Source: an uncultured Chloroflexia bacterium (GTDB lineage: Bacteria > Chloroflexota > Limnocylindria > QHBO01). From it: a stretch of 64,000 nucleotides of DNA. Made by a program: the position numbers and the translations under genes. Below are positions 1 to 64,000 of this stretch, piece by piece. The first letter of the stretch is position 1; each line of letters begins with the position of its first letter. The stretch lies in contig CAWEQC010000001.1 of the NCBI GenBank assembly GCA_963811145.1, positions 36,102-100,101 on the forward strand, given 5' to 3'. A model generated the notes under the pieces. It saw only the letters and a list, made by a program, of their open reading frames with translations. It was not told the DNA's origin and did not search any database.

Positions 1-26
1 CCACTTGGCCCCGGTGGCCGACCTAC

Positions 27-1172
27 CTAGACCCCGACGTCGCGGACGACCACGTCGTCGAGGGTCTCCCGACGCACGCTGAGCCGCAGCTCACCGCGAT
101 CGATCACGACCTGCGCCGGACGGAGCCGCCCGTTGTAGCTCGATGCCATGGCCGCACCGTATGCCCCGGCCTCCCCGATCGCCAGCAGCGCTCCGACGCC
201 GGATGCTTCCTGGAGATCACGGGCCAGCACGTCGCCCGCCTCGCAGATCGGACCCGACAACGTCCAGCCGCGAACCTGCGCCGGCAACGGGCCGCCCTGC
301 GCGAGGACCGTGACCGGGTGGCGCGCGCCGTAGAGCATCGGGCGCAGCAGCTCGGTCATGCCCGCATCGGCGATCAGGTGGCCACGCTCCTGGACACGGA
401 CGACGCGCGTGAGGAGCCAGCCCGCATCGCGCACGACCGTGCGCCCGGGCTCGACGATCAGGCGTGCGGGGTCGGGCAGGTGCGGCCGAACCGCCGCCGC
501 CCACTCCGCCGGGGATCCCGTGAAACCGCCCCCCATGTCGATGTGCTCGGCTCCCACTTCATGGGCGAGCCCTTGCAGGAGCTCGGCAAGCCGCCTGAAT
601 GGCTCCGCATCGGCGACTGCCGAACCGATGTGCGCGCCGATGGACCATGGTCCGATGCCGGCAAGTCGGAGGCGCTCGAGCGCCGCCGGCAGCTCGTCGA
701 GCGCGATCCCGAACTTGGCGTCCGCGCTGCCGGTGGCGAGATGAGGGTGCGTGGCGGCATCGAGGCCCGGGTTGACCCTGAGCCCGATGCGCCCCGACCC
801 GCCGACCGCGATCAGGGCGTCGAGCGCACCGAGCGACTCCGCGTTGACGAGCGCGCCGCCCGCCAGGGCATCGGCAAGGTCGGCATCGGTCTGGCCGACG
901 CCGTTGACGACGATCCGATCCGGCGAGGAGCCGGCTCGGAGGGCGAGCGCCAGCTCGATCGGTCCGACCACCTCGAAGCCGAAACCCTCGTCCGCCAGCC
1001 GCCGCAGCAGCGCCGGATCGGGGTTTGCCTTCACGGCGTACGCGACCAGCGCGCCGGGAAGAGCATCACGCCAGGCGTGCGCGGCCGCCGACGCCGCGTC
1101 GAGGTCCGTCACATACAGCGGCGTGCCCCAGCGCTCGGCAGCCTCGACCAGCTGGCGGTGCGGGAGGCTCAT
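27..1172 (-). CDS. lysA: Diaminopimelate decarboxylase (PLP-dependent Orn/DAP/Arg decarboxylase fold)
   Basis: Track ORF 27..1244. N-terminal block GTPLYVTDL...AYAVKANP and ~380 aa length are typical of LysA. Start trimmed to ATG 1172 (MSLPHRQ), which overlaps the upstream stop as ATGA. Confidence 0.85.
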   Translation of the reverse strand: MSLPHRQLVEAAERWGTPLYVTDLDAASAAAHAWRDALPGALVAYAVKANPDPALLRRLADEGFGFEVVGPIELALALRAGSSPDRIVVNGVGQTDADLADALAGGALVNAESLGALDALIAVGGSGRIGLRVNPGLDAATHPHLATGSADAKFGIALDELPAALERLRLAGIGPWSIGAHIGSAVADAEPFRRLAELLQGLAHEVGAEHIDMGGGFTGSPAEWAAAVRPHLPDPARLIVEPGRTVVRDAGWLLTRVVRVQERGHLIADAGMTELLRPMLYGARHPVTVLAQGGPLPAQVRGWTLSGPICEAGDVLARDLQEASGVGALLAIGEAGAYGAAMASSYNGRLRPAQVVIDRGELRLSVRRETLDDVVVRDVGV

Positions 1173-1387
1173 GAGGCGACGTGCGGGCGCAGCTCCTCGC
1201 CGATTCCGTCGATGAACATCTCGACGCGTCCGCATCGCGGACACACGTACAGGTCGAAACGCTGCTTGTTGACGAACAGCTCCCCGAGATCGCCGAGCAC
1301 GCCCCAGCGGGTTCCTTCGTGGAAGTCCTGCGTGCCGACGTACTCGAGAGCCAGGTCGCAGCGTGGGCAGACGATTGGATCGTTCAT
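1169..1387 (-). CDS. Small zinc-ribbon protein (72 aa, two CPRC motifs)
   Basis: C-terminal 72 codons of track ORF 1169..1750, starting at ATG 1387 (MNDPIVCPRC...). Two CPRC motifs lie ~40 residues apart. Translationally coupled to lysA. The Arg-rich upstream extension looks non-coding. Confidence 0.6.
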   Translation of the reverse strand: MNDPIVCPRCDLALEYVGTQDFHEGTRWGVLGDLGELFVNKQRFDLYVCPRCGRVEMFIDGIGEELRPHVAS

Positions 1388-1404
1388 CGGCCTATTGTCG
1401 CCGC

Positions 1405-1851
1405 ATGAGCAGCCCTGATCCGACGAACCGACCCGTCCTCCAGATGCGCCTCGTGGTCGAGGCCGATGACTACGACGCCGCCGTGCGCTTCTACCGCGAC
1501 GTCCTCGGGCTGCGCGAAGAGGCTTCCTTTGCGGGCGGGAACGACGCGCGCGTGACGATCCTCGCCGCCGGTCGGGCAACGCTCGAGATCGCGAATCCGG
1601 CTCAGAAGCGGATGATCGACGAGGTCGAGGTCGGCCGCCAGGTGGCGCCGAAGCTTCGCGTGGCCTTCGAGGTCGCCGACGGTGCGGCCGCGACCGACTC
1701 GCTGGTCGCAGCCGGCGCCACCCTGGTCGCCGAGCCGACCGAGACCCCATGGCGGTCGCTCAATTCGCGGCTCGACGCTCCGGCCGGCCTGCACATCACG
1801 CTGTTCCAGGAGCTCGGCATGCGCGAGGGCGAAGCTCCCGGCCGCGATTGA
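1405..1851 (+). CDS. VOC / glyoxalase-bleomycin resistance family protein
   Basis: Track ORF 1363..1851, start moved to ATG 1405 (MSSPDP). Glyoxalase-like blocks AVRFYRDVLGL, ATLEIA, RVAFEV. Confidence 0.75.
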   Translation: MSSPDPTNRPVLQMRLVVEADDYDAAVRFYRDVLGLREEASFAGGNDARVTILAAGRATLEIANPAQKRMIDEVEVGRQVAPKLRVAFEVADGAAATDSLVAAGATLVAEPTETPWRSLNSRLDAPAGLHITLFQELGMREGEAPGRD

Positions 1852-2027
1852 CCCGTGGGGCGGGTCTACGGTGGAAGGAGCGGCTGAGCCTCGAGCGCTC
1901 CGCCTCGATTTGACCCGTACTGCGGGTGAAATCGCGTCAGAAACCCGGCTTCTCCGCTGGTTGACCCGTGGTGCGGGTCAAAGCTCACGCTCCTCCGCTC
2001 GTAGACCCGTGGTGCGGGTCAAACCTC
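1847..2027. repeat. Cluster A of REP-like palindromic units (4 tandem copies)
   Basis: GACCCG-N5-CGGGTC hairpins at 1850-1866, 1911-1927, 1964-1980 and 2005-2021. Each is preceded by a GCTCC(G/T)CC-like leader. Unit spacing is irregular (41-60 bp). The first and last copies overlap the stop codons of the flanking convergent genes. Confidence 0.75.
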
Positions 2028-62712: not shown

Positions 62713-62836
62713 CGCACCTCGGACGTTGGGTGAATGGGACGATGATCGCCTGGGGCGGTCGCCGGGACCGCGTCGGATCCGAGGTGGCAGAACTCGGTCA
62801 CCGAGCGCGTCCGGGCGCCGGGCGGCGGATTGCGAG

Positions 62837-63561
62837 TTAGGGGAGCTCCTGCAGCACGTCCTCGGCCTCGCTCGGGTCGTCGGTCCAGACGACGAACGCC
62901 ACGTCACCGACGACGTAGAAGTAGGGAGAGTCGCCCAGGACGGATACCGACTTTCCTCCGACGGTCTCTTCCGTGACAGTCAGCTCGCCCGACATCACCC
63001 GCATCCCGCCGATGGCTACCGAAAGAGTGTCGATGATTGCAGTCAGGCTCGGCACCAGGCGACTCGTACTGCCATGACGGCATGCGGTGCATTGAACCTG
63101 CTCGTGATCCGGCGCGAAGGCCGCCGCACCCGCGGACCTCGGCCGGGTGAACGTCGAGCTACTCCGCCAACGCTCGCGACGCCAGTCCGCTACCATGCCG
63201 AAACCAAAAGGGTCCTGGTGCATAGTTTGATTCTCTGGACGTGGGAGTTCGTGCCACTTGCTCGCCATCGAACGAATCGACTCGTGACCGGCGCGCCGCG
63301 AAAGCGTGGTGGGCAACAGCGTGGCCAGGTCGGCGTCGGCGGCAATGGAGGCGGCAGCGCTCTCAGTGGCAGACGTGGCTGCGGCCGAAGCCGATTCGGT
63401 TGGCCGCCTCGCTGGGGGCGGTGGACGTGCTCGGAGTGCTGGAGGTCAGTCGAGGCCGCGGGCGATCCGCCGCTGCATCCGGCGATCAGGCCGCCGGTCA
63501 CGACCAAAACGAGCATGCCGCCAGCCCACGGACGCTGCGTGAAGCGATGAACGAGAGACAT
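62837..63561 (-). pseudogene. Lipoprotein (paralog of 52201..52818), at least two frame disruptions in its low-complexity linker
   Basis: ATG 63561, lipobox LIAGC. The linker continues as TSSTPSTSTAPSEAAN (next frame), then TESASAAATSATESAAASIAADADLATLLPTTL and the C-terminal domain ...TVGGKSVSVLG...WTDDPSEAEDVLQELP* (ORF 62837..63316). Confidence 0.6.
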
Positions 63562-63584
63562 CAGGGGACCCCCAAAAACGTAAT

Positions 63585-63608
63585 GCGCACCAATCCAGCC
63601 AGGTGCGC
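63585..63608 (-). terminator. Hairpin plus T-run downstream of the FGLLP membrane-protein gene
   Basis: GCGCACC-N10-GGTGCGC. On the minus strand it is followed by ATTACGTTTTTGGGGG. Confidence 0.45.
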
Positions 63609-63711
63609 GATGGCATGAGTGAGATTCGCACGGTAATAGCCGACCTCGTGCGGCGTCAAGCTGGCTTCCGTCATCGAGGCGCAGCTCGGATTGCTGGACT
63701 GTTCAGAGAAT

Positions 63712-64000
63712 TCACACCGCCGCGGTGGACTGCGGTCTTCGAAAGCGGAACCATGCCCAGAAGGCGACCGACACGAGCGAGAAGCCGATGAGCAATGCCA
63801 GCTCGGTGAACAGCGGGGTGCGGCTGGAATCGGACAAGTAGCCCGAGGCCGGGTTGATCAGGATGTGGAAGAACGCAAACGCTCCGATCGCAAGAAGCAC
63901 GCCCCACAGGATCCGGTTCGAGGCATAGAGCGGTTCGCCGGGCAGGAATCGCATCGGCAGTAGCCCGAAGACGACGCCCTCGAGGCCGGCGACCATCAGC
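63712..64000 (-). CDS. Membrane protein, C-terminal part (FGLLP-motif family); 5' end beyond the window
   Basis: Open frame to the window edge. Contains VFGLLPMRFLPGEPL followed by two TM spans. Confidence 0.6.
   Translation of the reverse strand, partial: LMVAGLEGVVFGLLPMRFLPGEPLYASNRILWGVLLAIGAFAFFHILINPASGYLSDSSRTPLFTELALLIGFSLVSVAFWAWFRFRRPQSTAAV

Follow-up and report, generated by a model that had tools for sequence, protein, structure and literature searches.

Do genes that change reading frame again and again carry those changes in the DNA of the living cell, or were the changes introduced when the genome was put together? The question is raised by a 64-kb stretch of DNA, here called the window, that corresponds to C1:36102-100101 of G000, a metagenome-assembled genome of an uncultured soil Chloroflexota of the Limnocylindria. 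Its closest protein homologues, by their database names, assign it to this class. The G000 record comprises 2.69 Mb in 5 contigs, the largest of which is 1.44 Mb, with a G+C content of 69.5% and an estimated completeness of 86%. Within the window, the reading frames of 14 genes are interrupted by 27 frame breaks. As judged from the assembled sequences, these breaks are very probably insertion errors of assembly or consensus rather than features of the organism's DNA.

Frame breaks were detected by two approaches. In the ab initio scan, a codon log-odds model was trained on the long open reading frames (ORFs) of G000 and used in a two-strand Viterbi search that permits a one-base skip or a one-base re-read within a gene. 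In the homology scan, the regions of G002 and G017 that are syntenic to the window supplied predicted proteins, which were searched against it by tblastn. Breaks were placed by frameshift-aware protein-to-DNA alignment and by a base-removal scan, with a precision of a few nucleotides. The relatives used for comparison are genomes of the same genus, including G002 and G017, which are clean, and G040 and G032, which are the closest.

The original prediction, made by reading the sequence, had counted 27 disruptions in 14 genes, and independent tracing returned the same 14 genes and the same total. Homologues support about 21 of the breaks, direct reading 3, and coding potential only 2; one further break, in lipoprotein 14266, can be read as the loss of one base or as the gain of two. 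Every resolvable break is a +1 shift produced by one extra base, with an exception near 14424-14475. Single-base-insertion behavior, with an exception flagged at 14424..14465, is what had been predicted, and that event is likewise the only one found that is not +1. The Viterbi search makes 24 shift calls in the window, as compared to about 3 expected at the clean-genome rate of 0.04-0.06 per kb, and the break load of the window is about 8 times background. Six true breaks were overlooked by this search, including those in the (EP)n repeat and in lipoprotein 62837. Conversely, the calls at 13053 and 13156 are false positives, because the SH3-domain gene in which they fall (12937-14094) is single-frame against G008, and the call at 57762 is a false positive arising from a gene overlap. 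Proteins from G002 and G017 match the window in successive frames at acs, alaX, cofD, and the genes for the DAG-kinase-like, dihydropyrimidinase, MarP-like, and MFS proteins. Once corrected, six proteins (ArsR, kinase, cofD, AAA_28, MFS, and lipoprotein 14266) can each be aligned without a change of frame in one or more relatives.

The gene acs, on the reverse strand, was used to examine whether the extra bases are peculiar to this record. Its first extra base lies at 15746..15747, where G000 reads CCA[C]GAG and relatives read CCA-GAC, and its second at 15604..15611, where G000 reads CTGCTTGGGCAG and relatives read CTGCTC-GGCAG. Both positions were assigned by DNA alignment, the second with seven same-genus genomes, and by the removal scan. 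Both extra bases are missing in all seven genomes, including G040 (93% nucleotide identity) and G032 (92%), and the gene is 1971 nt long in G040 and G032 versus 1973 nt in this record. All 120 of the 120 best acs homologues in a large protein collection are full-length. The closest public proteins are 91% identical for acs and 82-90% identical for the S8 protease described below, and no independent assembly of the same strain was found among the public protein matches for these two genes.

The spectrum of lesions was determined against a 500-kb reference taken from G017, a clean relative. Chained tblastn matches covered 335 orthologues and 318 kb. The junctions consist of 52 shifts of +1 and 9 shifts of 2; among the latter, 5 are compatible with a pair of insertions separated by 11-51 nt, and 4 with a single deletion. 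The total comes to about 62 insertions against 4 deletions. Aligned segments contain ten stop codons, each of which falls either at the end of a segment or in a stretch that is visibly out of frame, and therefore no clean nonsense substitution is present in the 318 kb. The inserted bases had been described as often not extending a homopolymer, which agrees with the refined +1 sites: 28 of 48 cannot be a duplication of a neighboring base and only 5 of 48 must be.

Across the genome, the Viterbi search finds one frame change per 2.35 kb, a total of 1142 in 2.69 Mb, of which 842 are skips and 300 are re-reads. This frequency matches the rate of about one disruption per 2.4 kb that the original prediction had proposed to check genome-wide; homology gives a lower rate for conserved genes, about 0.2 per kb. 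Homopolymer content and the longest base run at the 842 skip sites are the same as at control sites, and the sites are not concentrated in homopolymers. A search for a recoding motif around these 842 sites yielded no k-mer that stands out, the best 6-mer being enriched about 4-fold and present in 2% of sites.

None of the 50 tRNAs found by ARAGORN in G000 has a four-base anticodon. The same scan returned one oddity at G000:C4:1232191-1232282, a 92-nt tRNA-like gene with no assigned identity and a two-base "anticodon," which may be an indel-damaged tRNA or an unusual type II tRNA.

Whether the break load follows the organism or its assembly was examined by way of break density, measured with the same Viterbi program on every genome compared. 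The clean genomes afford few calls: 5 in 80 kb for G002, and 4 in 100 kb and 19 in 400 kb for G017. These values correspond to 0.06 breaks per kb for G002 (completeness 96%, 50 contigs) and 0.04-0.05 per kb for G017 (94%, 30 contigs). G000 has 0.42 breaks per kb (86%, 5 contigs), G014 has 0.45 (70%, 10 contigs), G003 has 0.48 (63%, 20 contigs), and G008 has 1.22 (56%, 20 contigs). Within the genus, break density drops with rising completeness, and the high-density genomes all have 5-20 contigs. Insertions outnumber deletions 3-5 to 1 in all affected same-genus genomes. The break load therefore follows the assembly rather than the organism. Many species representatives of the genus combine few contigs (3-20) with low completeness (54-87%). 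Because G003, G008, and G014, all three of the genomes sampled, show the same insertion syndrome, completeness in the clade is probably underestimated through frame errors.

The distribution of breaks within G000 is also uneven. The original prediction described a roughly uniform pattern; a marked patchiness is seen instead, the dispersion index being 9.6 and the number of calls per 25-kb bin ranging from 0 to 55. Density is 1.1 per kb at up to 25 kb from contig ends versus 0.35 per kb in the interior, a threefold difference. Hot blocks include C1:0-25 kb and the 3' end of C3, in addition to the start of C4. This patchiness favors an artefact that depends on read depth.

One contig end is especially informative about the origin of the syndrome. 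The first ~29 kb of C4 have a tetranucleotide correlation (r) of 0.92-0.94, as compared to 0.991 ± 0.004 for native chunks of the genome, and the native signature returns at ~29 kb. Frame-corrected CcmF from this segment is 75-79% identical to proteins of Microvirga, a member of the Alphaproteobacteria. By composition and homology, C4:1-29000 is a probable chimeric contig end or contamination. The block at C4:10-30 kb contains 3.5 breaks per kb, and the segment carries the same insertion syndrome ten times more strongly than the rest. Its appearance in the segment of a second, unrelated organism indicates that the syndrome belongs to the dataset and not to one organism, and that a mutational or decoding peculiarity specific to Limnocylindria cannot explain the breaks. 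A consensus error that extends over the whole dataset, with a rate that rises as support falls, can account for the C4 block.

The identity of the affected genes is consistent with this assignment. Broken orthologues in G000 include murA (3 breaks), PBP2/mrdA (2), leuB (2), ilvN (2), and an ABC-F protein (2), and putative large dehydrogenase and glutamate-synthase-like proteins are broken as well. In the window, acs and cofD are broken. The errors fall regardless of gene function, essential genes included.

Contigs from the same population were sought by exact-protein look-up of six intact genes that adjoin breaks, and two small contigs were found. The first, a farmland-soil short-read scaffold (ENA ERZ1761213), is 96% identical to window positions 9918-10480 (563 nt), from which it differs by substitutions alone and by no indels; it spans no break. 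A close relative of the G000 population is thus present in short-read data. The second, a 1242-bp contig from JGI metagenome 3300043313, encodes an exact copy of the window's 111-aa protein (window region 44266-44972). A closed ORF of 92 aa adjoins it at the place that the C-terminus of a Ser/Thr kinase occupies in the window, and 92 aa is the length predicted for this ORF without the extra base near 44678. Conjectured sequences of this neighboring ORF had no match in the protein collection.

Our studies allow a mechanism for these breaks to be proposed. The consensus of G000 would carry spurious single extra bases at about 0.2-0.4 per kb on average, with an error density far higher where support is presumably thin. 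Each extra base would shift the frame by +1, so that genes struck several times would walk through the three frames in one direction. The contiguity of the assembly and its error profile suggest that it was made from long reads only. Frameshifts driven by indels are well documented in long-read assemblies and metagenome-recovered genomes (10.1101/2021.08.23.457338; PMC9262707; PMC7423617). As in those cases, the assembly of G000 is highly contiguous, genes that are conserved elsewhere are interrupted in it by single-base indels, the completeness estimate is lowered, the rate is set by the assembly and not by the lineage, and the errors can be corrected by frameshift-aware alignment to homologues. 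The Nanopore literature emphasizes homopolymer indels (PMC9262707), whereas the errors in G000 are about 15:1 insertions over deletions and are not tied to homopolymers. For raw PacBio continuous long reads (CLR), the proovframe preprint gives errors of ~8% insertions, 3% deletions, and 2% substitutions, with Nanopore errors roughly balanced (10.1101/2021.08.23.457338); the insertion-dominated profile of G000 is as described for the raw PacBio CLR reads. A very large catalogue of Nanopore-only soil genomes was built with Flye and one round of Medaka, and effects of errors are reported there at lower coverage (PMC12313526). The data support long-read consensus insertion error, and either Nanopore reads with one polishing round or PacBio CLR would fit.

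An origin in assembly or sequencing error, rather than in pseudogenization, had been anticipated by the original prediction. It is supported by bases that are unique to the record, by the predominance of insertions, by the breakage of essential genes, by the absence of a motif, and by a density linked to assembly. That the extra bases are instead real, and mark an insertion-prone mutator lineage that has only just begun to inactivate genes on a large scale, is very unlikely. In its favor, the bases do stand in the deposited sequence, and completeness is reduced to 86%. However, genes of essential function (murA, mrdA, leuB, ilvN, acs, and cofD) are struck like any others, nonsense codons are absent, deletions are scarce, and no larger indels are seen. 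The breaks are also not common to relatives at 92-93% identity. A mutational process would be blind both to contig ends and to a Microvirga-like segment, yet density rises at both. Among the other genomes of the genus, those with few contigs show the syndrome at widely differing densities, and others are free of it. In known genome decay, such as that of Mycobacterium leprae and recent host-restricted symbionts, nonsense mutations accompany deletions and insertions of many sizes, essential genes are spared, and the lesions are partly common to close relatives. G000 resembles such genomes in its many disrupted reading frames, but it has neither the mixed lesions, nor the sparing of essential genes, nor the sharing among relatives.

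The nearly exclusive +1 direction of the shifts could also be reconciled with real extra bases that the cell bypasses by programmed +1 ribosomal frameshifting, quadruplet decoding, or correction at the transcript level. This explanation is already close to refuted, and we give it hardly any weight. No slippery or quadruplet motif is common to the sites, and orthologues do not conserve them. The tRNAs all lack an expanded anticodon, homopolymer tracts on which transcription could slip are absent, and genes are intact in the clean genomes of the genus. Programmed +1 frameshifting of the prfB (RF2) type takes place in a slippery or stop-codon context that is conserved across orthologues. The breaks in G000 resemble it in changing frame by +1 within a gene, but the 27 window sites have no common context and are unique to this record.

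An artefact of a different cause is possible, though it is not the explanation we would favor: polishing or consensus building may mishandle strain differences, or basecalling may err systematically in certain contexts, creating CpG and possibly responding to DNA modification. About half of the resolvable extra bases in the window form a new CpG, with C placed before G or G after C (15746, 31388, 31435-31436, 44870-44873, 60998, and 61900), and this could mean a systematic bias in basecalling or polishing; the share is a raw count of window sites, of which chance alone would give about 25% at such a G+C content. Modest k-mer enrichment at the ab initio sites (CTTGG, 3.4-fold; GGGCAG, 4.3-fold) and the patchy density are also consistent with such a bias, but any single motif accounts for only a few percent of sites. 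There is little prospect that the extra bases are physically present in a natural Limnocylindria population, whether as an insertion-biased burst at the onset of decay or tolerated through correction at the level of expression. More probable is a milder variant, in which many public long-read soil genomes carry a systematic error that avoids homopolymers and creates CpG, and in which the map of errors perhaps reflects DNA modification.

Several observations weigh against insertion error in the consensus or qualify it. Because the verdict is drawn from assembled sequences, the evidence against the extra bases is indirect with respect to the sample itself. Local break density is taken to reflect read depth, a link that we infer. 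The errors are unlike the classical homopolymer type of Nanopore, 454, or Ion Torrent sequencing and are of an insertion-biased kind that is not tied to homopolymers. The 92-aa ORF of the JGI contig is closed, although an intact kinase gene should continue past the end of the contig. Lastly, no indel specific to G000 was found in the 3.4 kb that comprise the 23S rRNA and its conserved flanks; with about one expected and a chance of none of ~0.3-0.5, this comparison has low power and is counted as neutral.

The gene struck most often in the window is that of the S8 protease (27604-32196, reverse strand), in which six +1 shifts were located by tblastn and the removal scan. They lie at 31880 (CGCG[A]GCC), 31726..31731, 31435..31436 (TCGT[CG]TGC), 31388 (CCCG[C]GAGG), 30076 (GGTG[A]TCTG), and 28817..28827. 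An Inhibitor_I9 match spans the second site, the third is also supported by Pfam, and a Peptidase_S8 match in Pfam spans the fourth. Homologues align to the window in frames -2, -3, -1, -2, -3, -1, and -2, and the one-way walk through the frames that had been predicted for this gene is thus reproduced as six consecutive +1 steps by way of intact homologues. The frame-corrected protein of 1529 aa has 76-82% identity over 100% of its length to intact homologues of 1525-1537 aa. Upon correction, this subtilase contains I9, PA, PPC, and DUF11 domains and C-terminal S-layer-homology repeats. The named homologues that rank next, at 62-63% identity, come from Promicromonospora and Myceligenerans (Actinomycetota), which hints at a transfer between phyla.

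Two extra bases are found in each of several other genes. In the MFS transporter (reverse strand), the first is at 3519..3520, as determined from homologues and the removal scan, with a Pfam MFS_3 match spanning the junction in the frame-corrected protein. The second, at 3468..3473, was placed by frameshift-aware alignment to the G017 and G003 orthologues, and removal of two bases scores 257 versus 201 for addition of one base. A comparable result was obtained for the MarP-like protease (forward strand), in which the removal scan puts extra bases at 60961 and 60998, a Trypsin_2 match spans both junctions, and two-base removal scores 492 versus 431 for one-base addition. In cofD (reverse strand), the first extra base, at 47485..47488, is supported by homologues, the removal scan, and frameshift-aware alignment, and the second, at 47403, by frameshift-aware alignment to G002 and G014; the corrected protein is single-frame in four relatives. 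The Ser/Thr kinase (reverse strand) has its first extra base at 44870..44873 (GTC[G]ATC), from frameshift-aware alignment to G017 and G008. Its second, near the C-terminus at 44676..44680, is supported by Viterbi, by reading of the sequence, and by tblastn continuity; local frameshift-aware alignment did not recover this shift. Past it, the protein reads ...KKQA and then EQAINPLIEACKEEGD up to the stop, and the corrected kinase aligns up to residue 416 in G017.

Five genes contain one extra base each. The ArsR-family regulator (reverse strand) has its break at 4334..4345; it was called by Viterbi, the corrected protein is single-frame in G003, and alignment puts the base at 4345. Homologues and the removal scan support the extra base of the alaX-like editing protein at 34843 (forward strand, GTCA[G]CTG), that of the DAG-kinase-like protein at 51733..51740 (reverse strand), and that of dihydropyrimidinase at 54187 (reverse strand, GTCG[C]AGG). 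In the AAA_28-like protein (forward strand), the removal scan, homologues, and frameshift-aware alignment place the base at 61899..61900, 10 codons ahead of the stop.

The remaining breaks lie in repetitive or low-complexity sequence or in a gene with no orthologue recovered. In the (EP)n/propeller protein (gene ~7737-9953, reverse strand), three-frame translation reveals three +1 shifts at ~9400, 9230, and 9160 (9150..9410). The Glu-Pro reading begins in frame A, passes through B and C, and ends in A again, and the frame-A flanks match the G002 orthologue. The three extra bases fall inside a ~250-nt (GAGCCN)n tract, the whole of which was passed over by the codon-usage gene finder, and repeat regions may conceal further errors of the same kind. 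Lipoprotein 14266 (forward strand) changes from frame 0 to frame 2 at 14424..14475, within a Gly/Asp-rich low-complexity region, where the two extra bases that would be an alternative to one missing base would lie near each other. Lipoprotein 62837..63561 (reverse strand) has at least two +1 shifts (frames 2>0>1) at 63380..63470, as traced by sliding codon log-odds in three frames, which is evidence from coding potential only; a tblastn search of its three frames in relatives for an orthologue returned low-complexity noise only.

These results bear on how the record is used. Naive gene calling would fragment or mis-extend about a fifth of the genes of G000, and those at risk in the window include acs, cofD, the 1,529-aa S8 protease, and the kinase. 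The first ~29 kb of C4, apparently from another organism, should be treated by users of the genome as probable contamination. Several other few-contig species representatives of the genus are affected, at different strengths. Frame errors depress completeness estimates, and pseudogenes or "gene loss" inferred from such breaks would be wrong. The record needs polishing, and its genes should be treated as intact and annotated through the breaks.

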